Shown in pieces: positions 3,476-23,025 of a DNA stretch of 64,000 nt. This DNA comes from Chloroflexota bacterium (GTDB lineage Bacteria > Chloroflexota > Anaerolineae > Anaerolineales > UBA11858): positions 6,606 through 70,605 of the forward strand of contig JABGRQ010000199.1 of the NCBI GenBank assembly GCA_018648225.1, written 5' to 3'. Position 1 is the stretch's first letter. The number at the start of each line of letters is the position of its first letter. The position numbers were made by a program, and so were the translations under genes. Under the pieces are notes generated by a model. That model was not told the origin of the DNA. It made no database searches and saw only the letters and a list, made by a program, of their open reading frames with translations.

Positions 3476-3484
3476 ATTTTTTTT

Positions 3485-3540: not shown

Positions 3541-3548
3541 TTTCGTTT

Positions 3549-4505: not shown

Positions 4506-4524
4506 GGGGTAAAACTCCTGATTT

Positions 4525-4603
4525 CACCACAAAGGCACAGAGAGCACAGAGCGTCTTTGTGTTTTACTGATTCAACTCTGTGAACTTCGTGTCTCTGTGG
4601 TTG
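4525..4603. repeat. R-family composite hairpin, copy 4 (CACAGAG variant); right arm lies inside the upstream CDS
   Basis: CACCACAAAGGCACAGAGAGCACAGAG - loop - CTCTGTGAACTTCGTGTCTCTGTGGTTG. The stop codon of the 4564-6636 CDS falls in the loop. Confidence 0.85.
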
Positions 4604-6636
4604 TTTTTTGCTAATTGATCTAATAAAAGCGCGACAGCCATCCAACCAGCCAGGCGAAACTGGATTCCAACCGGGGCGGCGTGACGCTCGATTTCAATAG
4701 GGTTGCCATGCCAGACGATGAACATCAGCGGGTATAAGCTCACCAAAAATACCGCCACAACCAGCCAGGCCGGGGAAAGGTTTCTTTTGCTGAAAAAATA
4801 GGCTCCCGCTCCAACACTCATCAGGAAAAAAAAGCCCCACATCACCCAGGCATCGCGTGGGTAAAAACGCGCCGTGAGGGTTTGCAGCCAAAGTGGAATG
4901 GTCGGCACGCCAAAACGCGGCAGATGGTATTCCAGATTGTCGCCGCTCAAAATTGAGGGAAGTTGCTGTAAAGGGGCGATCATCGAATCCAATGGATGGG
5001 TGATGAGGAATTTGGCATAGGTGGCGACACCATACTGGTTGATCCAGTTCATCGCGGCAGCCATTTGGGGATCATTCAACAGGTAGGGTTGATACTCGTG
5101 CCCGGGCATGGCACTCATCTTCAAGAGATTCTCGCTCATCGGCAACCCAGCAGCGATGAAATAATCCACTGCTTTGGCATCAGGCAAAATACGCAGGGCC
5201 AGCAAATCGGCCATGTGAATTTGCCACAGGTCACTGGCCCCAAAGGATACATTTTTAAGTACAAGCACGCCGAAAAAGAGCAAGAGATAGACCCAATAGA
5301 ATTTGCGATTCTGCCGAGGCACTTTGCCAAAAAGCCCGGCAATCGGGAACAAGAGCGCGCCGAAAACGGCAAAATATTGATTGCTCTCACGCGTGAAGCT
5401 ATACAAAATCGTCAGTAGCGCGGCCAGAAATACAAAAGCCACGCCTGCCTGGGGGGGTAACGGTTTCTTGGTAGCGGCGTTCCACCATAACCAGGCAGCA
5501 ATCAGCAAGGCGAAGATCGAAAAAGAGAGCGACTCGGAGAGTAGAAGACTCTCCCACAGGCTGACCTCCAAATTCAAGCTAAAGAACAGAATTATCCCAA
5601 AGGCCAGCGGACGGAGCCACGATTGACGCATTAGCAATGAAAAGACCAGGCCTAATGCCGCCCAAGAGAGAATTGAAAACCAGTATTGCGCATCCACGGT
5701 GTCGCGGATGACATTGGCATCCAGATAATTTGCCTGCGTCACGCCGGTAAGTTTGTAGAAAAGCGGCAGTGTGAAGGGGCGCGTTCCGGCCCAGAATTCG
5801 AGCGAGTTGAGCGGCTCGTCGGCGGTTTCGACATACCAGGCGGTATCCCGAAAAACGCGCTCCCCGCTGAATGTTGTATAGCTTAGTTTTTGGAAAGTAA
5901 AAACAGCGAAGATGGCAAGATAGAGTATGACCAACAGCGCCTTGACGGCGGCGGGATGCAGCCAACGCGTCTCAACGATGAATGCGAAGATAAATATTAG
6001 CACCCACAGCGCCAGGAAATAGAATCCCTTGACAAGCAGAATCCAACCCGAGGCCGCGTCCGTTTGTCCCAACACAATATCGGTGGTCACGCTCTGGGGA
6101 GCGGATAAATCAATCTCGGTCGGTTCTCCATCCCACAGCAGTGACAATTTCCCCGCGTCCACATTATGGCGCACGCTCAACACCACGCCGCCCGGCATCA
6201 TCCCGGAGAGATGCCAATCATCCGTAAGCTGGAACACATCCAGCGAGACGGGCGTACCATCCAGATATTTCACCTGACGAATTTCGACCGGGCCGCCGAA
6301 TGCAGTCATTTGCAGGCTGTGCTGCGCCGAAAGCGCGGGAATGGGCAGCGGGAAGAGACAGAGTAGCAGGACGGCAATCAAACCGCAGATGAACGCAGAT
6401 ACACGCAGATTTTTAAAACAGGTTGGGGTACCCCATTTCGTCCAAATAATAAATCCAAGAAAAATAAACGGCAACAGGATGGCGCTTTTAAGCAGGCCGC
6501 GCGGCGCGAAGTAACCGTATTCGTTGCCGAAGAATAGCGCACTGATCGTCAGCCAAACCGCTACCGAGAGCAGCAAATTAAGCCCCCAGACAGCCAATGA
6601 TTTCCTGGTCAAAGGTTCCCGATTATTAAACACCAA
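4564..6636 (-). CDS. polytopic membrane protein, GT-C-like (PMT_2/ArnT-like) putative glycosyltransferase
   Basis: 690 aa with many hydrophobic segments. Loop motif VETADEPLNSLEFWAGTRPFTLPLFYKL resembles the acidic loop plus (R/H)PPLY box of GT39/GT83-type enzymes. Start is TTG 6636 or GTG 6633. Confidence 0.5.
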   Translation of the reverse strand: MVFNNREPLTRKSLAVWGLNLLLSVAVWLTISALFFGNEYGYFAPRGLLKSAILLPFIFLGFIIWTKWGTPTCFKNLRVSAFICGLIAVLLLCLFPLPIPALSAQHSLQMTAFGGPVEIRQVKYLDGTPVSLDVFQLTDDWHLSGMMPGGVVLSVRHNVDAGKLSLLWDGEPTEIDLSAPQSVTTDIVLGQTDAASGWILLVKGFYFLALWVLIFIFAFIVETRWLHPAAVKALLVILYLAIFAVFTFQKLSYTTFSGERVFRDTAWYVETADEPLNSLEFWAGTRPFTLPLFYKLTGVTQANYLDANVIRDTVDAQYWFSILSWAALGLVFSLLMRQSWLRPLAFGIILFFSLNLEVSLWESLLLSESLSFSIFALLIAAWLWWNAATKKPLPPQAGVAFVFLAALLTILYSFTRESNQYFAVFGALLFPIAGLFGKVPRQNRKFYWVYLLLFFGVLVLKNVSFGASDLWQIHMADLLALRILPDAKAVDYFIAAGLPMSENLLKMSAMPGHEYQPYLLNDPQMAAAMNWINQYGVATYAKFLITHPLDSMIAPLQQLPSILSGDNLEYHLPRFGVPTIPLWLQTLTARFYPRDAWVMWGFFFLMSVGAGAYFFSKRNLSPAWLVVAVFLVSLYPLMFIVWHGNPIEIERHAAPVGIQFRLAGWMAVALLLDQLAKNNHRDTKFTELNQ
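6383..6414. repeat. U-family repeat arm embedded in frame in a CDS
   Basis: CCGCAGATGAACGCAGATACACGCAGATTTTT (three CGCAGAT units) encodes FKNLRVSAFICG. Confidence 0.7.
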
Positions 6637-6647
6637 ATACCTGCAAC

Positions 6648-7676
6648 CTATTTTTTCGTGTAGAGAAGATCAAAAAGCAACGAATACAAACGCCGGACGA
6701 TGCGCTCCAGAGCGGTGAAGCGCTTCACGGCTTTGACCAGCATGTTCTTTACCAGGTTATGCTTTTTGTGCGTAGCATTGGACGCTGGCATAACAGACAC
6801 ACCGGCACGCTGGCGAACTTCAAACGCTTCCGCGGCATGACGACCTTGCAGGCTGTTGCCCATGTGGTAAACCAGCGCATCGGTGGTGGAAAGCTGCAAA
6901 TAACCCAGTGCTTCCATCCGCCGATTGATTTGCATATGGTCATCGGAGTCGAGCGTGTGGGTGGTGGGCAGTGGGATGATTTTGCGCGCCGCGTCCCGCC
7001 GGATTATAAATTGCATGGAGGTACTACCCATCACTGCCTGCGTGTTACCTTGCGAAGGAATGAGCAACAATAACCGGTTTTGCGCCATTTTTTTGCGAAT
7101 TTCAGCGGATGCATTAACACCATCGCAATATTCTTCAAAAGCATAAGAGAGGGGGTTAACTTCGTCGATTTGTACGCCCGAAAGCGCGCGGCCCATTTTT
7201 TCAGCAATCTGACGCATACGCTGCGTCTCGTTGAAAAATCCTGGCTGCGCGCTAACGATGCCAACTTGCTCGAAAGTATCAAAAATTTCCAAACTGCGTT
7301 CAACCCATCCGGGCCGAAACAGTACATCGCTATCCGTTGAAACGATGAATTCGTTGGGCATAGATGAAAAAATCCAGTTCAGTACCCCGGTTTTACCCAG
7401 ATTATGACGCGAAAGCATCAGCCAATCAATCATACCATCCTGATATTGCTGGGTCAGAAATTGGGTCACTTCTTCGCAACTACCGTTATCAAAAACCATC
7501 ACATCGGCCTGATCGCCAATCGTTTGGTGCAAGCTCTGCAAGTGGATAGCGAAAACATCCAGCGACTCGCGAAAAAAACCTTCCAGCACCGGCATAAAGG
7601 TGATGGAAACAATACCTATCCGTTTGGGATGATAGACGGGGTAACGGTTACGAACCGGGTTACTGCCAATGCGCAT
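6648..7676 (-). CDS. family 2 glycosyltransferase (paralog 2 of 3)
   Basis: MRIGSNPV...IGIVSITFMP...VMVFDNGSCEE...STDSDVLFRPGW. Confidence 0.8.
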   Translation of the reverse strand: MRIGSNPVRNRYPVYHPKRIGIVSITFMPVLEGFFRESLDVFAIHLQSLHQTIGDQADVMVFDNGSCEEVTQFLTQQYQDGMIDWLMLSRHNLGKTGVLNWIFSSMPNEFIVSTDSDVLFRPGWVERSLEIFDTFEQVGIVSAQPGFFNETQRMRQIAEKMGRALSGVQIDEVNPLSYAFEEYCDGVNASAEIRKKMAQNRLLLLIPSQGNTQAVMGSTSMQFIIRRDAARKIIPLPTTHTLDSDDHMQINRRMEALGYLQLSTTDALVYHMGNSLQGRHAAEAFEVRQRAGVSVMPASNATHKKHNLVKNMLVKAVKRFTALERIVRRLYSLLFDLLYTKK

Positions 7677-7689
7677 AATTTAAAAGGGT

Positions 7690-7755
7690 AAATTGGTTCA
7701 ATCTGAATATAAGTTGGGATGTATTCATACCGGCGGGAGAGAATTGAACCAATTT
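7690..7755. repeat. W-family inverted repeat, copy 2
   Basis: AAATTGGTTCAATCTGAAT ... GAATTGAACCAATTT. Confidence 0.8.
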
Positions 7756-7762
7756 TTCGGGT

Positions 7763-8698
7763 TCAACGATCAAAATATAGGCTAAAGATTTGATGATACA
7801 GCCACATGAGCGGCTTCTTGACCCAGGGCTGATTGACAAGCCGTCGGCGCGGGCGATAGGGTTGGGATATATACTCGCCGGGCAGGGTATTGCCCATGTG
7901 CGCCACCAGCGGATCGGCCGTCATCAGACGTAGATATCCCGCTGCGTTAAGTTGTTCATCGAGGGTGCGCACCTGCCCCATCGGCCTGTCCATCTCAAAG
8001 GGCAGAAATTCTTGCAGCACTCGTTTGTGCGCTACAAATTGAAAATGCGCCGCGCCCGCATAGGCTTGCACACCGCAGTAGCTCAACTTCCAGTCGCAGC
8101 TTTCGCTGAACCACTCGATCGACTGTGCCTCCTCGATGCCGCAACTCAACGAGTGCTGGTTGAAAATCTCCCAACTCGTGAATTGTCCCTGTTCCAGTTC
8201 TGCATCCGAGGTTTGACGCGCCCAATCGAGGGTAGCCGAAAAATAATGTTCTTTGCTACGCAACGGTCGCGCCGTGACCATGCCCACGCTGGGAAAGGTC
8301 TGTAATATCGCCAGCGACTGCTCCAGCCAGCCGGGATGATAAAGAATATCGCTATCGGCATAGGCGATAACTTCGCCGGGCGCGGCGTTGAAGACGAAGT
8401 TCCACGCGCCCCCTTTGCCAATATTTTTCCCAGAGAATATCAGATATTGAATATTCCCGGCATCATATTCGGCTTGTAGAAAAGCGCGCGTCTCTGAACC
8501 GCTGCCGTTGTCGAAGATGAGCAAATCAAACGGCTCTGGCGTACTCTCGCGCAGGCTGGACAGGCTCTTTTTGAGAACGTCCAGGCTTTGGGCATAGTAT
8601 CCGCTCAAAAAGGGGATGTAGGTGACGATGGCAACAGTCACAGCCCGGGGCTGGGCAACGCTATCGACTGATTTGGCAGGGTTTTGTCCGAGGCGCAT
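7763..8698 (-). CDS. family 2 glycosyltransferase (paralog 3 of 3)
   Basis: MRLGQNPAK...VAIVTYIP...LLIFDNGSGSE...AYADSDILYHPGW. Confidence 0.8.
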   Translation of the reverse strand: MRLGQNPAKSVDSVAQPRAVTVAIVTYIPFLSGYYAQSLDVLKKSLSSLRESTPEPFDLLIFDNGSGSETRAFLQAEYDAGNIQYLIFSGKNIGKGGAWNFVFNAAPGEVIAYADSDILYHPGWLEQSLAILQTFPSVGMVTARPLRSKEHYFSATLDWARQTSDAELEQGQFTSWEIFNQHSLSCGIEEAQSIEWFSESCDWKLSYCGVQAYAGAAHFQFVAHKRVLQEFLPFEMDRPMGQVRTLDEQLNAAGYLRLMTADPLVAHMGNTLPGEYISQPYRPRRRLVNQPWVKKPLMWLYHQIFSLYFDR

Positions 8699-8710
8699 TT
8701 TCTATTCGCA

Positions 8711-8774
8711 ACCGCAGATGCACGCCGATAAACGCAGATAAAAAACATCCGCGTGCATCTGCGTTCATCAGTGG
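8711..8774. repeat. U-family composite hairpin (CGCAGAT units), copy 1
   Basis: ACCGCAGATGCACGCCGATAAACGCAGAT AAAAAAC ATCCGCGTGCATCTGCGTTCATCAGTGG. Confidence 0.85.
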
Positions 8775-8775
8775 T

Positions 8776-9675
8776 TCACTTTACCGGAATCCAGGTTTGT
8801 TTGGGAAGCAATTTCGTCAACACTCGCCGCCAGAGCATCCCAACACGGCGTTTGAAACCAACATTGCGCTCGCCCCTCACCCCTGGCCCTCGCGACAGCA
8901 TACCCGAAGGGTGCTCTCCCGAGGCGAGAGGGGAAGCGACTACGGTAAGATAAAGCGGCAGCAGCCTCGAGCGCGGCTGGCCGTGTTTTTTCAGCGCAAT
9001 AACTTCGTACCCGGCTTGAGTCAGAATCTGTCGCAGGGTGTGGGCGCTGAAGCTGGTCATGTGGGCAATTTCGAAGCTCTCATGGGCGTAGAGATTGGGC
9101 ACTTCAATCAAGATCACCCCCGAGGGAATCAGCACGTCTCTGCGCAGTTTTGCAAGATACGCTACCGGGTCGGGGATATGTTCCAATACGTGCGCCATGC
9201 TAATCAGGTCGAAAGGCTTTTCATCTGCATCCCTCATATCAGAGAGATCGGCGAATACCGTCAGGCCGTTTTTATGGGCGTAGGCACGATAAGCTTCGCC
9301 CGGCTCAATCCCCGCGGCGACGCAGTTGAAGGCTTCTGCAAAACGCCCTAACAAAATTCCAGAGGATGCACCAATATCGAGGTAACGCCGTGGGGCAATC
9401 TTTTGCGCGACGAGGAAGGCCAGTAGCCAGTCGGCGCGGCCATTTTGTACGACCAGGTCTTTCTGCGTAGGGCCTTCAGCGCCCTGGTAAACCTGACGAT
9501 ATTCGCGAGCGTAAAACGTATCCAACTCGGCCGCGGTCATACGCGGTGACTGGAATACCAGCCCGCAATTGGCACAAAGGCGGTTTTCCACCACCTGTTC
9601 TCTAAACTGGCGTTGGTCAAAAAGTTGGCTTTTCTCGTGCTCACAAAGCGGGCAATTCGTTATGTTTTCAGGCAT
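8776..9675 (-). CDS. class I SAM-dependent methyltransferase with N-terminal Cys4 ribbon
   Basis: CPLCEH...CANCGLVFQSPR, then YLDIGASSGILL (motif I) and FDLISMAHVLEHI. Confidence 0.8.
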   Translation of the reverse strand: MPENITNCPLCEHEKSQLFDQRQFREQVVENRLCANCGLVFQSPRMTAAELDTFYAREYRQVYQGAEGPTQKDLVVQNGRADWLLAFLVAQKIAPRRYLDIGASSGILLGRFAEAFNCVAAGIEPGEAYRAYAHKNGLTVFADLSDMRDADEKPFDLISMAHVLEHIPDPVAYLAKLRRDVLIPSGVILIEVPNLYAHESFEIAHMTSFSAHTLRQILTQAGYEVIALKKHGQPRSRLLPLYLTVVASPLASGEHPSGMLSRGPGVRGERNVGFKRRVGMLWRRVLTKLLPKQTWIPVK

Positions 9676-9688
9676 AGGTTTTCAAACC

Positions 9689-9721
9689 AGGTTACAGGCA
9701 CTTTATATATGCCTGTAACCT
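9689..9721. repeat. 11-bp stem hairpin
   Basis: AGGTTACAGGC - ACTTTATATAT - GCCTGTAACCT. The CCTGTAACCT unit also occurs in S-family copy 26981-27050. Confidence 0.7.
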
Positions 9722-9732
9722 TTAAGGATTAT

Positions 9733-10629
9733 TTACTGCCCCACCAGCTTGCGGCGCAGCAGGCGCAGGCGTTTGGTAATAAGCCAACGCAAACCGCGCT
9801 GGCTGGGCGAATAGACCAGTCGTTCCAGGCGACGCACCAGTCGTTCGGGCTGGTGCCGCGCCGGCTGCACCTGTCCGGAAAGCAATTCATGGCTGGCATC
9901 CAAAGTCATATACATATTTTGCATTCCACCCCCTAGCGCGGCATTGATGTGCGTCTCTTCGAGATCGTAGTGCATTTGTCCATCAGGCAGGTGGCTATAA
10001 TCATGATTTTGATGAATCGCCATCAGGCTTCCGGATGCGTCCACCACAGGCCATTTTTGCTTAAGCCCCTGGTAGATCATCCAGTTATCCCAACCGGCGC
10101 GGCCAATCGCAAAATCGGGGATATTTTGGAAAATAGAACGCGGAAAGATGAAATAATCGCTGCCCGCGGGGGCGTGCAGTTCCCCCTGAGAGCGGACGAT
10201 CTCACTCAGGGCTGATTCCCATCCCGGTGTGAAGGGCAACCCCTGGCGGATGTCCAGGTCCCAGCGCCGCCCGACGATGAGGAATTTCTGCACCTGAGCA
10301 GCCACCAGGCGCGCAGTCTCGATGAAATCGGGCAACAACAATATATCGGCATTGACATAAGCCAGCAGTGGCGATTCGCTATATTGGCGCGCCAATGCAA
10401 AAATCGAACTCACCAGCGGCGTACCAAACTCGTTGCGGGCCACATCTGGCAGATGTTTGACGCCATACTCAGCGGCAACTTCGGCCAGACCATTTTCTTC
10501 ACCAATTAGCAGCACCTCCACATTCGCGCCAAGTTGAATCCACGATTGAATGGCATTGCGTTGGATAATATTGATATGCCTGTCGGTGAAGGGTTTAGGG
10601 GAAGTAAAGATGGTGAGGTAGGGCATCAT
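9733..10629 (-). CDS. GT-A-like nucleotide-sugar transferase-fold protein, function unknown
   Basis: LTIFTSPKPF...YVNADILLLPDF (DxD-like). ATG at 10629; a GTG at 10632 is also possible. Confidence 0.4.
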   Translation of the reverse strand: MMPYLTIFTSPKPFTDRHINIIQRNAIQSWIQLGANVEVLLIGEENGLAEVAAEYGVKHLPDVARNEFGTPLVSSIFALARQYSESPLLAYVNADILLLPDFIETARLVAAQVQKFLIVGRRWDLDIRQGLPFTPGWESALSEIVRSQGELHAPAGSDYFIFPRSIFQNIPDFAIGRAGWDNWMIYQGLKQKWPVVDASGSLMAIHQNHDYSHLPDGQMHYDLEETHINAALGGGMQNMYMTLDASHELLSGQVQPARHQPERLVRRLERLVYSPSQRGLRWLITKRLRLLRRKLVGQ

Positions 10630-10631
10630 CA

Positions 10632-11459
10632 CTAATTTCGCTCGTCAATGTCTAAGTGAGTCTTGTGCTGCACGGCGGCGTTGATGCGTGCCAAATTGGG
10701 TTCGCGCTCGATGAGGGCCAGCACATCTTTCCAGGAGAAGCGATCATCGGGGAAACGCGCGGCTATCTGGCGGATGAGTTCCAAATCTTCAGGGGTGTCT
10801 ACCGTCCAGCGCTGATGCCCGAAATCCGGATGGTAGTGCAGCAAGGCAATTTGCATCCCGTCAGGGGTCATCCCGCTAGAGAAAAGGGCATCTGTTATTT
10901 GTGGACGCAGATACGCTACCGGAGTTTCTTCGTAAAAAAATGGGGTCACATGCTCGCGCTGGTGTTTTGCGATGGCGCGCTTCCAGGCTTTTTCCAGGGC
11001 GCTAAAAGTGAAAACTTCTGTATCCAGGCCAATGGGATACGTACGTCCCCAGGGCGGGGGCAAGCGATTGGCAACGAAGTCGAAGCGTGGCGTGCGGGTT
11101 CTGCCACCAATCAGCGTGTTGACAGCATCATCCACCAGAACGGGGTCAATCAAGGGGCAATCGGCGGTGATGCGCACAATTACATCGGCTCGTGCGGCTT
11201 TGGCGGCCTGATAATAGCGATCTAATACATCATGCACGCTACCGCGCGAACAATTATAGCCTTGAGCCTGGCAAAATTCGACAACAGCATCATCGCTGGG
11301 GTCGGTGGTTGTGGCAACCACTACTTCTTCAACAGTCTGCGCCAGGCGGGTGCGCTCGACAACCCAGGCCAGCATGGGACGCTCTGCGATGGGTAACAGC
11401 ACTTTGCCCGGCAGGCGGGATGAACTCATGCGGGCTTGAATAATGGCGACAATCTTCAT
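10632..11459 (-). CDS. SpsF/NeuA-type cytidylyltransferase (CTP_transf_3-like)
   Basis: MKIVAIIQARMSSSRLPGKVLLPI...RITADCPLIDP. ATGA overlap with the upstream gene. Confidence 0.8.
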   Translation of the reverse strand: MKIVAIIQARMSSSRLPGKVLLPIAERPMLAWVVERTRLAQTVEEVVVATTTDPSDDAVVEFCQAQGYNCSRGSVHDVLDRYYQAAKAARADVIVRITADCPLIDPVLVDDAVNTLIGGRTRTPRFDFVANRLPPPWGRTYPIGLDTEVFTFSALEKAWKRAIAKHQREHVTPFFYEETPVAYLRPQITDALFSSGMTPDGMQIALLHYHPDFGHQRWTVDTPEDLELIRQIAARFPDDRFSWKDVLALIEREPNLARINAAVQHKTHLDIDERN

Positions 11460-12772
11460 GCGACTTGTGTCTCACCAGGAATTGGCAGATGTTCAACGAA
11501 GCCCTTCGCCCGGAACTTCTCAACATACTCGCGCACGACCCAATAGTCCAGGCCAACTTCCTGGGCGATATCGAAGATACTGTGCTGGCCTTCAAAACTC
11601 ATCATAATTTTTTCGATGGCACGGTTGAGGGCAAAATTTTCTTGCCAGTCTACCCACAGACCATGCCCGGAGAGAAACACAGGCCCTTTAAAAGTGCGTT
11701 TGGGAATATAGTTACTGGCGTAGATACGCACAATTTTTTCAACAACATCCGCCGCGTCTTGTAGCATTTCTTCTTCAATGATGTCAGGGTTATCGTCCGT
11801 GGTGTGGTATTCATCGTAGGGCCAGCGATTGATGGAAATACACGGCACATTGACGCCCGGCCCGTTAATGACGCGTTCATCATTGGGCGGAAAATCGGCA
11901 AAATTGCGCTCGACGTGTTCAGCATTCTCTAAAACGTGAGCCGTGATGCGGTCAAGCAGGTGATTATACTGGCGGGTGTGATGCCAGGCAATCGGGCTGT
12001 CGTTTCCAGTCATTTCGATAAAAATTCCACCCTTTAATTGGGGGATCAAATCTTCATGATGCGCCAGATAGACAATCGTACCGATGGTTTCGGGACCAAA
12101 CCAAAAACGCACATCCATCGAACCGGACGGCAGGGGGTTTGTGGCTAGCCGCTGAGCAACTTCGACAGCGGTGACGACGCCAGCGGTATCATCGTTAGCC
12201 TGCATGGGGTGGCACAGGTGAGACGAGATGAGCATCTCGCCCGCATCGGGTGTAGAACCGCCCTCAGGCTGGATGACCCCCACTGAGACCCGAAAGCCGC
12301 CTGCTTCGGGGGCTGACAAAAACTCCGAGCGAATCACCACTTGATAACGCGCATCCCGCGGTAAAACGTCAAAGACATCTTTGGGCAGACAAAAGCCCCA
12401 CTCACGCTGATAGTATTTAAAAATCCAGGGCGTGGCCCAGGGGCGCGCTTCGTTGTAATGCAGGTGCGGAGCCAACTCGTCCCAGGTGAGTACTGCATCG
12501 ATTGGCGGCGAATAGGAGACAATATGCAGCGGGTTATCAGCAAAATCCACAATGCGGCGACCATCTTCGAAGGCCAGGTAGGCTTCATGCACGCGGTAAC
12601 GCTCTGGTACGCGCCACGTCCAGACTGGCGTATTAGGAACAAAACTCTCGACGGTGTAATTGGCCGCAGCGGGCATGGCTTCGCCGACAATGCGCAGGGC
12701 TTCGTCCATCTCGGCGGAGGCGAGAGTGCGATGTAGGGGGTGGATGCGTGTGAGGAGGGATTTGAGTTTCAT
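11456..12772 (-). CDS. aminopeptidase-like-domain protein (COG4310 / DUF2172-DUF4910-like) with C-terminal winged-helix-like tail
   Basis: ISSHLCHPMQANDDTAGVVTAVEVAQRL resembles the metal-site region of M28-like polysaccharide-locus proteins. Confidence 0.5.
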   Translation of the reverse strand: MKLKSLLTRIHPLHRTLASAEMDEALRIVGEAMPAAANYTVESFVPNTPVWTWRVPERYRVHEAYLAFEDGRRIVDFADNPLHIVSYSPPIDAVLTWDELAPHLHYNEARPWATPWIFKYYQREWGFCLPKDVFDVLPRDARYQVVIRSEFLSAPEAGGFRVSVGVIQPEGGSTPDAGEMLISSHLCHPMQANDDTAGVVTAVEVAQRLATNPLPSGSMDVRFWFGPETIGTIVYLAHHEDLIPQLKGGIFIEMTGNDSPIAWHHTRQYNHLLDRITAHVLENAEHVERNFADFPPNDERVINGPGVNVPCISINRWPYDEYHTTDDNPDIIEEEMLQDAADVVEKIVRIYASNYIPKRTFKGPVFLSGHGLWVDWQENFALNRAIEKIMMSFEGQHSIFDIAQEVGLDYWVVREYVEKFRAKGFVEHLPIPGETQVA

Positions 12773-12779
12773 ATTTTTT

Positions 12780-12850
12780 CACCACAAAGACACAAAGGCA
12801 CGAAGGAGATAAATAACATCTCCTTTCTTTGAGTCTTCGAGCCTTGGTGG
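12780..12850. repeat. R-family composite hairpin, copy 5
   Basis: CACCACAAAGACACAAAGGCACGAAGGAGAT AAATAAC ATCTCCTTTCTTTGAGTCTTCGAGCCTTGGTGG. Confidence 0.9.
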
Positions 12851-12893
12851 TTCATTTCATGGCGCATTATCAGAAAGTATCCTTGGGGAAACC

Positions 12894-13646
12894 TTATTTA
12901 GCAATTTCATACAACAATTTTGGATCGCGGCGCATTTCGCGAGCGGTGAAATCGTAGATTTGGTTGGCGTTCATCAGCGAGACTTTGGCTGCGCCAATTT
13001 GCGCCACGGTGATAATTCCGGCTTCTTCGGCCAGGGCGCCCATCGGGTCTACCATCGTCTCAACGCCTTGATCGATATCACGTACCAACATTTGGAAGGA
13101 ATCTTCGTAGGTTTCGCCGTTCTCGTCTGTGACTATACCGGTGAAGGTTTTTAAATAACGATAATCCACACCTTCGAGTTCTTCAACATGGTGAAAAAAA
13201 GTCATGCTATCGTTGTAACTCAGGCCGACGACCATAATTTTGCCGTCGAGTTGGCGCAGCTTACCAAAGAGCGAGTTGCGCTCGTAGCTGCTCTTGTAAC
13301 GTTCACGAGTGAGAAAGTCGGCCTGCGCTCCAATGGCGGAAAATGAGTAAATCGGATGAAAGACGCGCTGGCTACGCGGATCTTTGCGCACTAACTCAGT
13401 AATAATGCCCATGTGCGAGGGGGTTTCGTTGACATCCCAGGTTTGACCTTTGCAAAAATCAAAATTGAAGGTGGGCATAATCAGAGTGCCTTCCTCGCCC
13501 AGCACATGCAGCAGGGCATCAATCACAATCTGCGGGCCGCCCTCTACGCCGCCGAAGGATTTGTAAGATGAGTGGGTGAGCAGCGTGTCACCTGCTTTTA
13601 CCCCGATGGCTTGAAATTCTACAATCAAATTATCTTTGGTAAGCAT
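12894..13646 (-). CDS. AAC(3)-family N-acetyltransferase
   Basis: MLTKDNLIVEFQAIGVKAGDTLLTHSSYKSFG...LIMPTFNF. ATG 13646 is preceded by GGAG at 6 nt. Confidence 0.75.
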   Translation of the reverse strand: MLTKDNLIVEFQAIGVKAGDTLLTHSSYKSFGGVEGGPQIVIDALLHVLGEEGTLIMPTFNFDFCKGQTWDVNETPSHMGIITELVRKDPRSQRVFHPIYSFSAIGAQADFLTRERYKSSYERNSLFGKLRQLDGKIMVVGLSYNDSMTFFHHVEELEGVDYRYLKTFTGIVTDENGETYEDSFQMLVRDIDQGVETMVDPMGALAEEAGIITVAQIGAAKVSLMNANQIYDFTAREMRRDPKLLYEIAK

Positions 13647-13662
13647 CTTCAACTCCAAATTT

Positions 13663-13779
13663 ATCACGAATGAATACGAATAACACCAATGACACGAATT
13701 TGATGAACACAGATTTTTTATCGCTTCATCCGATTTATCTGTGGCTATTTGCCAAATGCACGGTAGAAAAATTCGTGAT
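13663..13779. repeat. nested composite repeat (CACGAAT arms enclosing a U-like hairpin)
   Basis: Outer ATCACGAAT...ATTCGTGAT; inner GATGAACACAGATTTTTTATCGCTTCATCCGATTTATCTGTGG. Confidence 0.7.
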
Positions 13780-13795
13780 AAAAGTCCATAAATTT

Positions 13796-14632
13796 TTATT
13801 TTAGCGACAACACCCCAAAAGCCTGTGGCCGTGGCAGCACAGCGCTAAAACCGGCTTGCTTCAAACGCCGAACAACACCACTGGTCACGCGTGCGCCGGA
13901 TTTGCTCTCCGGGCTGCCAATATAGTGAAACATGCGTCCGTTGGATTTCAGCACACGATGGGCCTGACGATAGAATTCCAGCGAATATAGTTCCCCAGCC
14001 AGACTAAACATGGGCGGGTCGTGGATGATGGCGTTAAATCTCTCGGCGGGAAAGGTCTCAATCAGATCGTTGCTGTCGCCAATGAGCTGCTCAATCTTGG
14101 GGTTGTCGAACAGCCCTTGCGACCAGGGGTTTTGGCGGGCAATTTTCTGCGCCGCGGGGTCAAGCTCCACGGTGGTGATATGTGTGGCTTTCTCGGCGGC
14201 TAAAATCGCCGTGTAGCCCAACCCGGTAGTGGTATCCAACAGGCATCCACCCACTCGCCCCAACGCTTTGATCTTGCTGCGCGTATCCCGCCAGGGGTTG
14301 GTATCCTTGATACGGTGCATCGGGATACCAGAAACCAGCATCGTCGGAGCCGACTCGGTGGGGTAAAGCGTGTAGGCGCGTTGAAAAGTCTCTGAAAAAA
14401 CCTGAATAGCCTGGGCTTGACCATCTTCGACCCAAAAGCAGCTATTCTCATCGGCGGCAATTTCGGCAAGCACATCCCAGGCCAATACGTTATCGTCTGA
14501 GAAACGCGCACCGATTTCTGTCAAATCAACTGTGAGCCTAGAAATGCCTAAATCGAGTGATATTTCGATTGTGGATTGGCGATCCCGAACCTGAAGCAAG
14601 GGTCTGGCTTGATGATGTGAGAGAACAATCAT
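13796..14632 (-). CDS. SAM-dependent N-methyltransferase-like protein (DPPM motif IV)
   Basis: [13 protein letters not shown] (motif I) and IIHDPPMF ((D/N)PP(Y/F)-type motif of amino-group methyltransferases). ATGA overlap upstream. Confidence 0.65.
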
Positions 14633-15762
14633 GCGGATAGGGCCAGACGGTAGACTTCGAAAAGTTTGGGGAAATTCTTCTCCCAGTCGGCGCGTGACTC
14701 TGCTAAATGGCGGGCGGCTACACTCATAGCAGGTAACTGCTCCCGAAGGTCAAGGGCATGAAGAATGCCATCCCGCAGAGAGGCCATATCGCCATCTTTG
14801 AAGAGCCAACCGCTGCGACCCTCACCCTCCCCCGCTTCGCTCCCCCGCTTCACCCACTCCTGATTGCCGGGAATGTCAGTCAGCAGCACGGGTGTGCCAC
14901 AAGCCAGCGCTTCGAGCAGCGAAATCGATGTTCCGTCGCTGTGAGATGTACTAATATATAAATCGGCGGCGCGGTAATAGTTGGGCAAATCGGCCTGCTT
15001 GACCTGCCCCGGAAAATGCACCCGGTCGAGCAGATCGGCATTCATGAAGATGCGCCGGATGGTTGGGGCCAGCGGGCCATTGCCGAGCATCAGCAGGCGT
15101 AACTCCGGGCGCTGGCGGGCCGCCTGGACGAAGGCCTGCGCCAAATCTTCGACACCATAAATGGGCGACCACCCGCGGGTGGAGAGAAGAACAAAGGTAT
15201 CAGCACCCCAACCCAGACGCTTCCGCAAGCCGCCATCATCGCCGGGAGCATATTTCTGGATATTTGCCCCCCACGGAAAGGTCACAATCCGCTCCGGATT
15301 CATGCCATGTTGGACAGCCAGATTGCGAATCGTATCGCAATCACCTAAAAAAGCCGCACTGCGCTTGAGGGTGTATTCGGTTGCCCACCGCCACCAACGA
15401 TTGCGGTCTGCATCCATGAGCAGATCGTAGCCCCACGACATACTCACAAGCCGGCGAAAGCCAGTCAGGGCGGTGAGCAAAGCTGCCGTCTGGATGGGGC
15501 CGGCTTGAACAATATCAGGCTTGAAAGTGCGAATCACCCTCTTTAAACTGCGAACCAGCCGGAGCGCATCCCGCAGTTCCGCTTTGGATTGGCCACCCGC
15601 CCAGTGGAGTTGTTCAATTTCCGGGGGCAAAGGCCGATCATCGAGGGCATGTCCCCGACTTTCCAAACGCAGATAGCCAATCTGATGCTCAGTCTGTGCC
15701 AGCTTCGATAAAAAGCGATGGTCGTGAGTCGTATACTCTCTCGAAAAGTATAGGATTTTCAT
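14629..15762 (-). CDS. family 4 (GT-B) glycosyltransferase
   Basis: [10 protein letters not shown]...[31 protein letters not shown] (EX7E region). Confidence 0.8.
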
Positions 15763-15766
15763 GTTG

Positions 15767-15815
15767 GGTTGAATGTTGAAAGTTGAAGGCTACAAACAAC
15801 CTTCAACTTTCAACC
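15767..15815. repeat. S-family composite hairpin (GTTGAAG units), copy 1
   Basis: GGTTGAATGTTGAAAGTTGAAGGC TACAAAC AACCTTCAACTTTCAACC. Confidence 0.85.
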
Positions 15816-15821
15816 TATAAC

Positions 15822-16904
15822 TTATGAACTGATATTCTCCCAGCGCAAATCCATGCCATAGGGCATATCGATGAGAGCTTTTTTGCCAACGAGCTGCTCA
15901 AGTTCCCAGGGCTGAACCGCGCCTTCAACATTTGGGCGCAGCGGCTCGAGCATATCGGCAGTTATGATTTCTCCAGCTTTAATTTCACAGGCGGCGCGCA
16001 GGCAGCGGCGTTGCAGCCAATAGGTCTCCTGCTCGTTGCCGGTGACGAATTTGTCATACGAGCCTAAGGCGCGCTCCAGCGTGCGGACTTGCAGCACCAT
16101 CTCGGCCCAGTTTTCGGGGTTCATGGCGAATTTGTGGTCGGGGCCTTCACGGTCATTGCTATCGGTGAAGTGACGCTCAATCAGGCGCGCTCCCATCGTT
16201 ACTGCGCCAACCACCGGTGCTGAACTGTGGGTGTGGTCGGAGAGCCCCAGCACAAGATCGGGGAACATGGCGGCGTAAGTTTTTAGTACATTGAGGTTGA
16301 GGTGATCGTAGTTCGAGTCGGCGGCGGTGTAGTTGGTATTGCACTGGAAAAGCACGATCTCATTGTTGTGAGGCCGCACAGCGCGCACCGCCCGCACCAC
16401 GTCGCCAATATCAGCCGCACCCGATGCAATCAATATGGGTTTGTCGAATTTCGCCATGCGCACCAGCGCATCGGGCCAGGACATGAGGCCCGAACCGGCT
16501 TTGAAAGCCGGGACGTAAGCATCGAGCATGTCTATGGCTTCGTAGTCGTAAGGCGATGAGAAGTAGTGAATGCCGACTTTGTCGCATTCTTTTTTGAGGA
16601 TCGGCGTCCAGTCGAAGGGGACGGCAGCATCGGCATAAACTTCAAATACGCTCTTCTTCCAGGATGCCTGATGCGATAGCTGCCCGCCCAGTGATTTGAA
16701 ACCATAATCGGAGACAATCTTGGAAGCACGAAAGTTCTGGAATTTAGCCGCGTCGGCTCCGGCTTCTTTCGCCAGACGGATGAGCATTTTGGCGCGTTCC
16801 AGGTCGCCGTCGTGATTGGCAGCAATATCGGCAATGAAATAGGTGGGGTGATTCAGGCCAATTTTTTGACCGGCGATGGTGATTTCGGGAGCGGGGATTA
16901 TCAT
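15822..16904 (-). CDS. NeuB-family nonulosonic/sialic-acid synthase homolog with SAF domain
   Basis: YFIADIAANHDGDLERAKMLIRLAKEAGADAAKFQNF, LGLSDHT, and a C-terminal SAF-like AGEIITADMLEPLRP. AAGGAG RBS upstream. Confidence 0.8.
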   Translation of the reverse strand: MIIPAPEITIAGQKIGLNHPTYFIADIAANHDGDLERAKMLIRLAKEAGADAAKFQNFRASKIVSDYGFKSLGGQLSHQASWKKSVFEVYADAAVPFDWTPILKKECDKVGIHYFSSPYDYEAIDMLDAYVPAFKAGSGLMSWPDALVRMAKFDKPILIASGAADIGDVVRAVRAVRPHNNEIVLFQCNTNYTAADSNYDHLNLNVLKTYAAMFPDLVLGLSDHTHSSAPVVGAVTMGARLIERHFTDSNDREGPDHKFAMNPENWAEMVLQVRTLERALGSYDKFVTGNEQETYWLQRRCLRAACEIKAGEIITADMLEPLRPNVEGAVQPWELEQLVGKKALIDMPYGMDLRWENISS

Positions 16905-16925
16905 AAGATGTCTCCTTTATCTCGG

Positions 16926-17285
16926 TTACGGGCGCAGGCGAGCCGAAAGTTCACGCAACTGGTGGAAACTAATGGGCTTGGTCAATACAAGATCCGCTTC
17001 ACCGCGCAGCGATTCGGCCAAAGCCGCATCGGCACTGACAATGATCACACGCATATCTTCCAAACGTTCATTAGAGCGAATATACAACAAAATATCCTTA
17101 CCAGATACTTTTGGCAAATGAATATCCAGGATCATAATGGCTGGAATCGTTTCTTCCAGACGATCCAAAACAGCTTGCCCATTGGAAAAAATTTCGGTTT
17201 CGTAATCCGCAGCTTTCAAAGCCTCTTCAAAGACCGTTACGATGGTCAGATCATCTTCAACAATAAATGCCAGGGGCTTGGTCAT
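16926..17285 (-). CDS. receiver-only response regulator (CheY-like)
   Basis: FIVEDDL...IMILDIHLPKVSG...VLTKP. 119 aa with no output domain. ATGA overlap with the kinase gene. Confidence 0.85.
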   Translation of the reverse strand: MTKPLAFIVEDDLTIVTVFEEALKAADYETEIFSNGQAVLDRLEETIPAIMILDIHLPKVSGKDILLYIRSNERLEDMRVIIVSADAALAESLRGEADLVLTKPISFHQLRELSARLRP

Positions 17286-19060
17286 GATGCTTCCTCCATA
17301 CGCTCAGATGTTGGGATTTCAAGGGGTAACAGCACCGTAAACACAGCGCCCTCTCCCTCTTTGCTAACTAAACGCACTTCACCACCCATCAAGGTCACAA
17401 GTTGTTTAACGATGGCCAATCCCAGCCCAACGCCATCTTGCTCTCTGGTAATCGAATAATTCGCTTGCCGAAATGCATCAAACAAGTGTACTTGCACCGG
17501 CTCAGGAATGCCAATGCCGGTATCAGCAACTTCCATTGCCCAATGCGTATCATCCGGACAAAAAGCACGAACTTTTACACTGCCCTGATCGGTGAATTTA
17601 ATGGCATTATCAACCAGATTCGCCAAAATTTGATATAGCCTAGTCGCATCACCACACAGCATGGGAGGAATATCAGGCGCTATCTCTATGGAAAACACCA
17701 AACTTTTCTCTTGAAAGGCAGCCGCAAAATTTTCCTGTATCTGTTTTATCAAGTCAGCTACCTGATAAGCATTCATCGCCAAACTAAATTGACCACTTTC
17801 CAAACGCGTCAAATCCAATAGATCATTAACAAGGCTGGTCAGATAATTCGTTCGGCCAATAATGCGCCGTAAAACCTCGCCCTGTTGCTCAGTTACCGAG
17901 CCATAGACCCCATACTCCATCATTTCCACCAGCCCTAAAATGCCCCCAATCGGGGTGCGCAACTCGTGCCCAACTTTAGCCAGAAACTCTGTGCGTACCT
18001 GAGCCATCGCCAACGCTTCTTCAGCCAGCTTGTCACGGGTAATATCGCTCAACATCACCAGGCGTCCGGTAATTTTGCCCGTCTGCGTATGAATTGGCGA
18101 AATTTGCACTTTGAGATATTGCCGAGCATCACCCACAGGGACAGAAATCTCTTCGGTAATTTCAAAAACGCCCGCAAATTGCGCCAGGATTTCAGGCCAC
18201 CGGCCAAACACCTGATCGGCTGTCAAACCGTTGATACTGCTACCTTCACTATTGATCATCACTAAAGCAGCCGGGTTCGCATCCACCACACGATCATGCT
18301 GATCGAGGACAAACATGGCTATGCTCATATTATCCACAACCAACGAACGCGCCACCGGCACCATATCAAACAACCGGAACCGGAAGATCCCCCACCCCAG
18401 GATGATGGCGCTGCCGGTGAAAGCAAACGGCCCTAAATCAAGCTGTGGAACCGGGCTGATTCGAGCAATATAAAGCGCGTTCCCCACCCAGGGGAGAATC
18501 GGGCTGAGGATCAACAAAACCAATTGCCAGCGATAAGCCGCCGGAAAATTCCACAGGGCAATGATCAACGCCACAGAGCCAACAAAGAGCAGCACATAGG
18601 CGTACACGAAATATATCCACCACCCAACCCCATAAGTTGCATCCAGCATCACAAAAGGGCCATCCGTGTTGAGCGTCAACGCAGACCAGTGCCAACCGTG
18701 CCACTCATTCGTGAACGCAGAAATAACGGTGAGTACCGGAATAACACTTAAAATGGCAATCCACACGGGTTTCCACCACTGCTCGCGTCCGGAGAAACCC
18801 ATCGCAAAGAGAAACCATCCCACCGGGATATACGCGATCCCCACATACTGGAATTTCGACCACAGAATAATTGTGGTAATATCTTGCGCCCAAACTTCCA
18901 GGGCATAGAAAAGCGACCAGGTAGCCAAAGATGCCGTCACCATTGCGAAAGCGCGCGCACCTGGTAGCTCCCGGCGTTGCCATGCAAAAAATGTCATCAC
19001 CAATGCCGCAACCGCCGAGATGAACAACAATACAAAAACTAGAAGGGTTTGCCAGTTCAT
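17282..19060 (-). CDS. sensor histidine kinase with N-terminal 7TM sensor region, PAS-like domain, HisKA and HATPase domains
   Basis: H-box HELRTPIGGILG; N-box NLVDNAIKFT; DTGIGI; GVGLGL. Hydrophobic N-terminus AWQRRELPGARAF...YVGIAYIPVGW. Confidence 0.85.
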   Translation of the reverse strand: MNWQTLLVFVLLFISAVAALVMTFFAWQRRELPGARAFAMVTASLATWSLFYALEVWAQDITTIILWSKFQYVGIAYIPVGWFLFAMGFSGREQWWKPVWIAILSVIPVLTVISAFTNEWHGWHWSALTLNTDGPFVMLDATYGVGWWIYFVYAYVLLFVGSVALIIALWNFPAAYRWQLVLLILSPILPWVGNALYIARISPVPQLDLGPFAFTGSAIILGWGIFRFRLFDMVPVARSLVVDNMSIAMFVLDQHDRVVDANPAALVMINSEGSSINGLTADQVFGRWPEILAQFAGVFEITEEISVPVGDARQYLKVQISPIHTQTGKITGRLVMLSDITRDKLAEEALAMAQVRTEFLAKVGHELRTPIGGILGLVEMMEYGVYGSVTEQQGEVLRRIIGRTNYLTSLVNDLLDLTRLESGQFSLAMNAYQVADLIKQIQENFAAAFQEKSLVFSIEIAPDIPPMLCGDATRLYQILANLVDNAIKFTDQGSVKVRAFCPDDTHWAMEVADTGIGIPEPVQVHLFDAFRQANYSITREQDGVGLGLAIVKQLVTLMGGEVRLVSKEGEGAVFTVLLPLEIPTSERMEEAS

Positions 19061-19061
19061 A

Positions 19062-19982
19062 TCAATTTCTCCGAGTCATTTCTCGCAACATCTGTGGATA
19101 ACTCTGTTGATAATGTTGATGAAACCGCTCCAACCCTGTGGATATTGTGGGGGGTATTGTGCCTAAATCGTGGATAAGTTTATCCACGCTCATCGTCAAA
19201 TTGGGGGAACGCGTAGCCCGCAGACCCGCGGCAGAAACAGCGATGGGCGCGATCAGCTCGGGGTTGAGTGCAAATTTTTGAGCGATTTCTACCCCGAAAG
19301 TGTACTTGCTCATATGATCGCTGCTGAAAACATGGTACAACCCGCTCAACCCCTTGGAAAGCATCTGCAAGAAGATATGCGCCATATCATTGGCATATAA
19401 TGGACAAAAATATACATCCGTAAAGCCTTTAACTGACGCCCCGGCCTGGAGATTATAGAAAAAGAACTCTGCCAGACTACGTTGACCGAGCAGGCTCCAG
19501 CCAAACAAGTTGACTCTGACAATGATCGCATCGGGGTTGGCTTCCTGCACGGCGCGCTCCCCGGCCAGCTTGGTTTGAGCATAAACGCTCAGGGGATTCG
19601 GCGCATCTTCTTCAGTGTAGTTCCCCGTCACGCCATCAAAGACCGCATCCGTAGAAACATGCAACAGGCGCGCTCCGCCCCTGGCGACATAGCGAGCCAG
19701 TTTCCGGGGAAGATCAATATTCAATTCCCCGGCCAGTTCGGGGTCTTTCTCACAAGCTTCTAAATTTGCCAGGGCGGCACAATGGATTACCCAATCGGGT
19801 TGTACGTTATCGAAAAGGCGTTCTACTGTGCCGGGGGTACGCAGGTCTACCTGTTGAACCGAGAAAGCCTGTGTTTTCAAGGGGTGACGGTTGACAATGC
19901 CAACCACGTCATGATTTTGAGCAGCTTCTAAAGCAATATTGATACCCAGCAAGCCGCTTACCCCGGTCACTAAAATTTTCAT
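19062..19982 (-). CDS. RmlD-like NAD(P)-dependent sugar 4-reductase (SDR)
   Basis: MKILVTGVSGLLG...STDAVFDG...YAQTKLAGE (YxxxK). ATG at 19982; the track start is a GTG 2 codons upstream. Confidence 0.7.
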   Translation of the reverse strand: MKILVTGVSGLLGINIALEAAQNHDVVGIVNRHPLKTQAFSVQQVDLRTPGTVERLFDNVQPDWVIHCAALANLEACEKDPELAGELNIDLPRKLARYVARGGARLLHVSTDAVFDGVTGNYTEEDAPNPLSVYAQTKLAGERAVQEANPDAIIVRVNLFGWSLLGQRSLAEFFFYNLQAGASVKGFTDVYFCPLYANDMAHIFLQMLSKGLSGLYHVFSSDHMSKYTFGVEIAQKFALNPELIAPIAVSAAGLRATRSPNLTMSVDKLIHDLGTIPPTISTGLERFHQHYQQSYPQMLREMTRRN

Positions 19983-20049
19983 AAACACTTGCCCATATGC
20001 ATTGCTAACGGGCCACGATTGAATCGTCGAGGCTATTCAAACTTGAGGG

Positions 20050-21057: not shown

Positions 21058-21085
21058 ATCAACTCCACAAGTATTATTTTTTTCT

Positions 21086-21128
21086 CACCACAAAGACACA
21101 AAGCTTTTTTTCTTCGTGTCTTCGTGGT
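21086..21128. repeat. R-family composite hairpin, copy 6 (short)
   Basis: CACCACAAAGACACAAAG CTTTTTTT CTTCGTGTCTTCGTGGT. Confidence 0.9.
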
Positions 21129-21138
21129 AGATGTTCTT

Positions 21139-22008: not shown

Positions 22009-22015
22009 GCCTGTC

Positions 22016-23023: not shown

Positions 23024-23025
23024 GG

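Follow-up and report, generated by a model that had tools for sequence, protein, structure and literature searches.

Nonulosonic acids shape the recognition of bacterial surfaces and, to our knowledge, nearly all known bacterial routes to their 9-deoxy forms install two amino groups. How might a gene cluster that holds a nonulosonic acid synthase and a cytidylyltransferase, and no aminotransferase of its own, arrive at an activated sugar? The question is raised by a series of minus-strand genes in a 64,000-nucleotide stretch of DNA from a Chloroflexota bacterium (the window; positions 6606-70605 of contig C181, in a genome of 4.02 Mb, 226 contigs and 97% completeness). A sequence-only reading of the window had marked out seven of these genes, from a NeuB-like synthase to a GT-A-like protein, as a unit. 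All seven open reading frames (ORFs) were present on the minus strand, with the coordinates and families it had given. The unit was too small, however. The seven genes form the core of a wider module, conserved among Anaerolineales, of which PseB (20050-21057) and an RmlD-like reductase (19062-19988), both overlooked by that reading, are also part. We propose, with moderate confidence, that this module builds a nonulosonic acid activated by cytidine monophosphate (CMP) by way of the reductase, and attaches it on a glycan exported by Wzm/Wzt. In the direction of transcription, the genes in question are:

20050-21057, minus: PseB, inverting UDP-GlcNAc 4,6-dehydratase (TIGR03589, 499.5 bits; cut-off 407.75)
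19062-19988, minus: RmlD-like NAD(P)H 4-ketoreductase (PF04321, E = 2.9e-59)
15822-16904, minus: NeuB-family nonulosonic acid synthase (PF03102, E = 2.3e-62, with a SAF domain)
14629-15762, minus: GT4 (GT-B) glycosyltransferase (Glycos_transf_1, E = 3e-28)
13796-14632, minus: COG2521-family S-adenosylmethionine methyltransferase, 278 residues (PDB 8vyd, E = 4.6e-58, residues 6-276)
12894-13667, minus: AAC(3)-fold (Antibiotic_NAT) acyl-CoA N-acyltransferase (PF02522, E = 4.3e-46)
11456-12772, minus: DUF4910/DUF2172/M28-like zinc protein, 438 residues (PF16254, E = 1.6e-48; PF09940, E = 3.9e-26)
10632-11459, minus: SpsF-type cytidylyltransferase (CTP_transf_3; PF02348, E = 4.4e-34; PDB 6oew, E = 7.3e-40)
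9733-10632, minus: GT-A-fold protein, 299 residues (AlphaFold2 model, mean confidence (pLDDT) 89.9)

Extent and conservation of the module

Window proteins were compared by blastp with the ORFs of genomes from the same order; their named homologues came from metagenome-assembled genomes of Anaerolineae/Anaerolineales. Species-representative genomes were scanned with a DUF4910 alignment, which returned 80 loci, all from Anaerolineae, so that Campylobacter, Clostridium and Fusobacterium were not represented. In 49 of these, DUF4910 was accompanied by one or more core module genes; in 20 (the stand-alone loci) it had none beside it despite at least 3 kb on each side, and 11 were too short. Upstream genes were counted in those 35 module loci whose upstream DNA extended for 7.5 kb or more, including two (L100 and L133) with one weak core hit each, and downstream genes in the 42 related loci with downstream DNA.

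The order in related Anaerolineales was PseB, RmlD-like, NeuB-like, GT4, AAC(3), DUF4910, SpsF-type, GT-A-like. The same order recurred in dozens of related genomes, and the arrangement is not one of chance. The NeuB-like synthase and the GT4 gene were each found in 33 of the 35 loci, with GT4 directly after the synthase. The reductase lay between PseB and the synthase in 30, and PseB itself was found in 29. AAC(3) stood apart from DUF4910 in 29 loci and was fused to it in 6. Downstream, the SpsF-type gene was present in 39 of 42 loci and the GT-A-like gene in 40 of 42. The COG2521 methyltransferase occurred in 10 of 35 and a DegT aminotransferase in one (L088), while NeuC/Epimerase_2 and LbH/GNAT genes were found in none. 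By blastp, two genomes (G119 and G036) carried the full order from PseB to the GT-A-like gene without the methyltransferase. Several junctions in the module overlap by 1-4 bases, and the stop of the SpsF-type gene overlaps the start of the GT-A-like gene that follows it. Of 120 further genomes of the order that were sampled, 72 held a synthase orthologue (E ≤ 4.3e-81, identity of 58% or more).

Two further genes stand between the reductase and the synthase in the window:

17282-19060, minus: 7TM-PAS histidine kinase (Pfam)
16926-17285, minus: response regulator (Pfam)

The pair was found in none of the 35 well-flanked loci, nor in G119 and G036, and is an insertion peculiar to this genome, outside the conserved module. 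In some relatives the reductase-synthase gap held variable cargo (L107:3176-6826, L128:4621-6717, L125:3708-6731), of the types DUF4260, metallophosphoesterase, HIT, GDPD, M20 peptidase and NUDIX. HIT, NUDIX, metallophosphoesterase and M20 genes were considered as the source of a missing hydrolase and rejected as optional cargo, being present neither here nor in most loci. Between the synthase and GT4 genes, a 22-nt inverted repeat fills the gap of 59 nt (15768-15821; 86% complementary, with 10 nt between the arms). A scan of 8500-21500 for promoters and terminators gave counts no higher than chance, an Rfam scan of the window gave no match, and base composition showed no island in the window.

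The module sits within a Wzm/Wzt export locus. An ABC-2 permease and an ATPase with a Wzt_C domain, as expected for ABC-dependent glycan export, are encoded in this same locus, and upstream in relatives too. The gene order of the upstream block (21139-26977) and of the downstream block (1113-9675) was common to related loci. The features of the two blocks, identified with Pfam unless stated, are:

26117-26977, minus: Wzm (PF01061)
24695-26020, minus: Wzt with Wzt_C domain (PF00005 and PF14524)
23026-24633, minus: Capsule_synth-like transferase (also a weak BFO_1060-family match)
22016-23023, minus: sulfotransferase
21139-22050, minus: methyltransferase
8776-9675, minus: methyltransferase
7763-8698, minus: GT2 glycosyltransferase
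6648-7676, minus: GT2 glycosyltransferase
4564-6636, minus: protein with 12 transmembrane segments (hydrophobic windows)
3549-4505, minus: GT2 glycosyltransferase
2624-3568, minus: methyltransferase
1113-2570, minus: 485-residue protein, no family

Elsewhere in the window, the minus-strand stretch 35818-45076 holds a B12-binding radical SAM protein (35818-37329), followed by three large proteins of 880, 882 and 735 residues without a Pfam family.

Canonical partners and the enzymes present

Canonical pathways to pseudaminic acid (Pse) and legionaminic acid (Leg) require an aminotransferase, a GNAT or LbH acetyltransferase and a UDP-sugar hydrolase, and the sequence-only reading had seen none of these in the window. 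For the aminotransferase this was correct: no DegT-type gene occurs in the window or on the whole of contig C181, and all eight PF01041 matches in the genome lie on other contigs. For the other two classes it was too strong when applied to the window as a whole, where the following were found:

49491-50690: NeuC-type hydrolysing UDP-GlcNAc 2-epimerase, in the first NeuB module (TIGR03568, 398.9 bits against 235.9)
62964-63638: hexapeptide acetyltransferase, O-acetyltransferase-like and under every NCBIfam cut-off

For the module itself, however, the absence of its own aminotransferase, GNAT/LbH N-acetyltransferase and PseG/NeuC hydrolase held across the 35 related loci, and the flanks of the contig outside the window hold no such standard genes. 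The first NeuB module is of NeuB/NeuC/NeuA type. It occupies 48785-55391 on the minus strand and mirrors the second, with Wzm, Wzt with Wzt_C, a Capsule_synth-like protein, NeuB, the NeuC-type epimerase and a cytidylyltransferase. It is followed at 47463-48815 by a 450-residue 'surface carbohydrate biosynthesis'/BFO_1060-family protein.

A genome-wide search for homologues of the Pse and Leg enzymes, as that reading had advised, found LegB, LegC and NeuC, and not PseC, PseH or PseG. PseG (TIGR03590) gave no match in the 97%-complete genome. The highest PseC scores in the genome (TIGR03588; cut-off 423.5) were 263.4, given by a LegC-type protein, and 218.2; for PseH the highest was 40.6, with a cut-off of 93.1. 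A canonical legionaminic-type set lies on contigs C29 and C36, not adjoining the module. It comprises a partial LegB, a PtmE-like nucleotidyltransferase, WbuX, a NeuD/PglD-family acetyltransferase, NeuC, NeuB and LegC, with NeuB and LegC both above their cut-offs. The genome has four strong NeuB genes. On contig C135 (G000:C135:18135-20021; L058:10136-12022, minus strand), a 628-residue protein joins NeuB-SAF to a xylose-isomerase-like TIM barrel (AP_endonuc_2); its neighbours are two cytidylyltransferases, short-chain dehydrogenases/reductases, a 2-hydroxyacid dehydrogenase, an MptE-like protein, a sulfotransferase and a phosphoadenosine phosphosulfate synthase, and relatives carry similar ORFs of about 630-760 residues.

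Against this background the upstream pair of the module stands out. PseB was the sole match above the TIGR03589 cut-off in the genome. The reductase scored 186.6 bits with TIGR01214, under the cut-off of 224, and the genome has no other full-length gene of the RmlD family. RmlC (PF00908) was searched for in the genome and not found, which, together with the single RmlD-family gene, argues that the reductase does not serve dTDP-rhamnose synthesis. We propose it instead as a stand-in for the PseC aminotransferase.

The synthase fell under the NCBIfam cut-offs for both NeuB (245.3 against 399.65) and PseI (223.5 against 340.25), and was about equally distant from the PDB entries for SpsE (1vli, E = 1.8e-44), NeuB (1xuu, E = 4.9e-40) and PseI (8h2c, E = 6.3e-38). 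These scores would place it in a distinct clade of the NeuB family. NeuC scored above its cut-off in only 3 of the 72 genomes holding a synthase orthologue, and it is thus unlikely that NeuC supplies ManNAc to the synthase. For the GT4 protein, both a transferase and the missing UDP-sugar hydrolase are candidate roles. The SpsF-type cytidylyltransferase was far under the PseF cut-off (27.3 against 205.7). The 299-residue protein at 9733-10632 had no Pfam family match. Foldseek matched its model to GT2/GT-A enzymes (E = 4e-8 to 2e-7, TM-scores of 0.45-0.55), best of all to 6p61, K4CP and SpsA (1qg8). In one relative (L192:6383-8551, minus) the SpsF-type domain and the GT-A-like protein form a single in-frame ORF of 722 residues, possibly through an assembly error. 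If real, this fusion hints that the GT-A-like protein uses or handles a CMP-sugar.

The AAC(3)-fold protein was under all NCBIfam AAC(3) cut-offs (best NF033082, 118.5 bits against 270), and its PDB matches include FrbF (3sma) and YokD (2nyg). On these scores it would share with the aminoglycoside resistance acetyltransferases a fold family only. The 438-residue protein, described earlier as aminopeptidase-like and recommended for profile and structure searches, resolved into DUF4910 with an inserted DUF2172 and full-length similarity, and matched CA_C2195 (PDB 3k9t, E = 9.2e-44 over residues 5-413). Residues H188, D194 and H323, invariant or at least 90% conserved, align in 3k9t with the CA_C2195 zinc ligands His189, Asp195 and His324 (ligands from PMC4000134). 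The local sequences HLCHP and GPET fit the replacement of the M28 catalytic Asp/Glu by Ser/Pro (cf. PMC4000134).

Here and across related loci, the DUF4910 gene is found in association with N-acyltransferase and sugar nucleotide genes. Antibiotic_NAT-DUF4910 fusions made up 19 of the 29 long DUF4910 representatives in a library of 1.84 billion proteins, and among module loci each of the five long ORFs was such a fusion. It was likewise carried by every one of the 20 stand-alone loci, with Pfam confirming it in each of three tested, and by 10 of the 11 short ones. The synthase module was kept in five of five genomes with a stand-alone fusion, and in the four such modules that were fetched, AAC(3) and DUF4910 were missing from their usual place. 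This near-constant pairing or fusion indicates that the two proteins form one functional unit, able to leave the operon. The pair probably swaps an N-acyl group. At the module position, the AAC(3)-fold genes were of two types, with 36-41% and 59-87% identity to that of the window, against 60-87% for DUF4910. The split separates L069, L082, L088, L092, L104, L108, L110, L112, L120, L122 and L132 from the other loci. The two types may use different acyl donors.

The candidate route and its competitors

What the data show directly are the families, the conserved gene order, the fusions and the lack of canonical partners; every chemical step of the route that follows is inferred. PseB would convert UDP-GlcNAc to a UDP-4-keto-6-deoxy sugar, which the RmlD-like enzyme would reduce at C4, with no PseC-type transamination, to a UDP-2-acetamido-2,6-dideoxy-L-hexose. 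A hydrolase would free the sugar; the GT4 protein, the GT-A-like protein or a gene in trans are candidates for this step. With phosphoenolpyruvate, the NeuB-like synthase would then produce a 5-acetamido-3,5,9-trideoxy-non-2-ulosonic acid, in which a 7-hydroxyl replaces the 7-amino group, and the SpsF-type enzyme would convert it to the CMP-sugar. The DUF4910 zinc protein would strip the sole N-acetyl group, and the AAC(3)-fold enzyme would re-acylate the amine from another acyl-CoA. Transfer of the sugar would fall to the GT-A-like protein, the Capsule_synth-like protein, or both.

With PseB present, PseG not found, PseC and PseH under their cut-offs, and the synthase and cytidylyltransferase under those for PseI and PseF, the reductase route is the best reading of the module. 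The sequence-only reading had also suggested a non-standard route to a differently decorated nonulosonic acid. The lack of canonical partners agrees with this, although with PseB and the RmlD-like reductase upstream the route is less mysterious than it had seemed.

Several observations weigh against the proposed route. No UDP-sugar hydrolase was identified for the module, and no gene for an alternative acyl donor occurs in it; if acetyl-CoA were the donor, the cycle of deacetylation and re-acylation would be futile. At least 20 related loci have the AAC(3)-DUF4910 unit at a distance from the module, and the unit may therefore act on something other than the module sugar. In one genome (G079) the synthase is about 70 kb from the remaining module genes. 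PseB and the reductase could feed a separate 6-deoxy-L-HexNAc backbone sugar. Five DegT aminotransferases are encoded elsewhere in this genome, and DegT genes were found in five of five module-bearing relatives searched, with one of them some 20 kb away from the synthase in G225 and in G185; amination could therefore occur in trans. Finally, the literature, as far as its accessible parts extend, contained no assay of DUF4910 N-deacylase activity or of the module enzymes.

The DegT genes would suit a pseudaminic-type pathway in which amination occurs in trans, the role of PseH falls to the AAC(3)-fold enzyme, DUF4910 later edits an N-acyl group and the reductase serves another sugar. The five DegT genes of the genome include one in a trio with an unknown protein and a GNAT on contig C72, the DegT gene of L088 lies inside the module, and in the available text of PMC3068675 the Campylobacter jejuni DUF4910/AAC(3) pair stands beside pseB and pseC. 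However, DegT occurs in the module in just this one of the 35 loci, whereas the reductase does so in 30; PseC, PseH and PseG are all below cut-off or unmatched in a nearly complete genome; and the synthase does not reach the PseI cut-off. A diamino product thus seems unlikely, if still credible. The C72 trio (L061:127-5335) occupies a 5.3-kb contig, where the DegT gene, a 370-residue protein without a family and the GNAT lie beside a large serine recombinase, and this DegT/GNAT set may be a mobile amino-sugar cassette.

PseB-like dehydratases paired with RmlD-like reductases are the pattern for synthesis of UDP-L-RhaNAc and L-QuiNAc (WbvB/WbvR). The locus could accordingly hold two sub-pathways, in which PseB and the reductase make a UDP-6-deoxy-L-HexNAc for the backbone, and the synthase uses another aldose such as ManNAc, with N-acetyl exchanged by DUF4910/AAC(3). 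Four or more further glycosyltransferases in the locus would allow for this, and L-6dAltNAc (6-deoxy-L-AltNAc) is a backbone residue in Fusobacterium nucleatum 25586, according to the parts of the literature at hand. On the other side, 69 of the 72 synthase genomes have no NeuC above cut-off to supply ManNAc, and the reductase and synthase are direct neighbours in most related loci. We regard this division of labour as decidedly unlikely. That DUF4910 is a true peptidase processing a glycoprotein target is very improbable: it has an M28-like fold and a Peptidase_M28 match (E = 1.4e-7), but two catalytic M28 residues are replaced and one zinc site kept (PMC4000134, in its accessible part), the recurrent acyltransferase fusion suits small-molecule chemistry better, and no target protein gene is conserved nearby.

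More tentatively, and with the balance of probability against it, the module could be the first genetic route to 5-N-acyl-3,5,9-trideoxy-nonulosonic acids (the fusaminic-acid class), with a 4-ketoreductase replacing the trio of aminotransferase, acetyltransferase and hydrolase, the sugar as a core envelope trait and DUF4910 as a sugar N-deacylase. The literature listings and passages searched contained no published route to such acids and no assay, although one may exist. On this reading, about 60% of Anaerolineales genomes would have the sugar as a core trait of the envelope. As it would hold only one nitrogen, the paired DUF4910 and AAC(3)-fold enzymes would have to act on it, and DUF4910 would found a family of sugar N-deacylases with the M28 fold. 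A conserved one-nitrogen route would explain the origin of fusaminic-acid-type trideoxy sugars and reveal the surface coat of a large, mostly uncultured group of Chloroflexota. The module would also offer the simplest setting so far for the biochemistry of the DUF4910/AAC(3)-fold pair, a pair that was tied genetically to N-acyl variation of sugars in Campylobacter in 2010.

One gene in the cluster probably plays no part in this pathway. The sequence-only reading had taken the 278-residue protein (motif HDPPM at residues 204-208) for an amino-group methyltransferase and recommended profile and structure searches. In the PDB the protein has a full-length match to 8vyd, TK2045, which makes N4,N4-dimethylcytidine in archaeal 16S rRNA and has bacterial homologues in 2.6% of COG genomes (PMC11551388, in the text available). 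The gene is a single copy in this genome. It was found in 22 of 121 sampled genomes of the order, this one included; in the other 21 holders it lay between GT4 and AAC(3) in 2 and elsewhere in 19, and most module-bearing genomes are without it. Around 17 of the non-module copies, none of 32 neighbouring proteins examined was a glycan enzyme, and RsmH, MnmA, DnaK and ClpB were among them. In L146 (3-980, minus), the gene adjoins RsmH/MraW, a 16S rRNA m4C methyltransferase.

In a tree of the family, the 13 in-module rows (11 distinct) formed one group with support of 94/89 and a stem of 0.097. HDPP was invariant in 29 distinct sequences, and 49 positions were invariant across both groups, against 5 that discriminated between them. 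From these comparisons, the gene is probably the lineage's housekeeping enzyme of rRNA m4,2C type, relocated once into the module in a subclade, rather than a sugar enzyme. Co-option in this subclade, by which the enzyme would N-methylate the amine freed by DUF4910, has some points in its favour. In-module copies always occupy the slot between GT4 and AAC(3), both in the 10 related loci and in the window, and the start region here overlaps the GT4 stop by 4 bases. The family acts on an exocyclic amine (PMC11551388, same portion), and at the fourth position of the motif 10 of the 11 distinct in-module copies have M, against none of 18 elsewhere. Nonetheless, the similarity to TK2045 extends over the N-terminal domain, this is the sole copy in the genome, and most holders keep it outside the module, beside housekeeping genes and never glycan genes at the loci examined. 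The short stem of the in-module group, the preponderance of invariant positions and the absence of the gene from most module-bearing genomes point the same way, and co-option is in our view improbable. The case is a caution that operon membership need not mean pathway membership.

Relation to known systems

The accessory set was earlier called unusual, and an AAC(3)-fold and a metallopeptidase-like gene do stand near the synthase. The set itself, however, was already known (PMC3068675, PMC4000134). What is new is the variant module, with a reductase that would take the aminotransferase's place. Other mentions of the family were slight: in their accessible parts, PMC10832277 and a Pelagibacter preprint name DUF4910 in passing only, while PMC13317340 and PMC3765264 cite the Cj1295 paper and give nothing on function. 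A literature search under the name COG4310 returned nothing.

We take Cj1296/7, the partner of Cj1295 in C. jejuni NCTC 11168, to have the AAC(3) fold. In the accessible text of Hitchen et al. (PMC3068675), Cj1296/7 is tabulated as an N-acetyltransferase, and Cj1295 was required for pseudaminic acid carrying di-O-methylglyceroyl at N5, for which the authors proposed cleavage of the N5 acetamido group. Compared by description, the likeness to the present module is that the aminopeptidase-like Cj1295 belongs to the flagellin glycosylation locus, where it adjoins an N-acetyltransferase gene and has pseB nearby. The Campylobacter pair, however, decorates canonical 5,7-diamino pseudaminic acid and stands beside pseC, whereas here PseC, PseH and PseG were not found and a reductase follows PseB.

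CA_C2195 of Clostridium acetobutylicum resembles the window protein in sequence, in its zinc ligands and in a neighbourhood of spsE/spsF type. As listed in the available part of Das et al. 2014 (PMC4000134), that neighbourhood holds spsE, spsF, glycosyltransferases, N-acetyltransferases, a methyltransferase and an NDP-sugar epimerase, with no aminotransferase listed, and a non-peptidase role in sugar modification was proposed for the family. The present module is a member of this DUF4910 sugar-modification neighbourhood. It differs in that the clostridial locus, as far as the available text describes, encodes a Maf-type transferase and, for an acyl donor, acyl carrier protein, ATP-grasp and HAD proteins, whereas the Anaerolineales module has none of these and sits in a Wzm/Wzt locus.

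The canonical CMP-Pse pathway (PseB, C, H, G, I and F) shares with the module a PseB above the equivalog cut-off, a NeuB-family synthase and a cytidylyltransferase. Since PseC, PseH and PseG were not found, and the synthase and cytidylyltransferase remained under the PseI and PseF cut-offs, the module would, on family scores, be a member of neither the canonical Pse nor the canonical Leg pathway, although it is similar to them in outline.

For the methyltransferase, the closest known protein is TK2045 of Thermococcus kodakarensis (8vyd, COG2521), to which it is similar over its full length, with both domains and the DPP motif kept. The window enzyme is bacterial, carries DPPM in place of DPPR and is encoded within a glycan operon, and its activity on rRNA, at the helix 31 cytidine of 16S rRNA, is a prediction.

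For the product, the nearest precedent is chemical. The O-antigen of F. nucleatum 25586 contains L-6dAltNAc and a 5-acetimidoylamino-3,5,9-trideoxy-nonulosonic acid (Vinogradov et al. 2017, as cited in the accessible parts of PMC7371886 and PMC13014188). In strain ATCC 25586, a trideoxy fusaminic acid with a non-acetyl group at N5 thus occurs alongside the 6-deoxy-L-AltNAc that would be expected from PseB and a 4-reductase, a likeness of product structure and not of genes.

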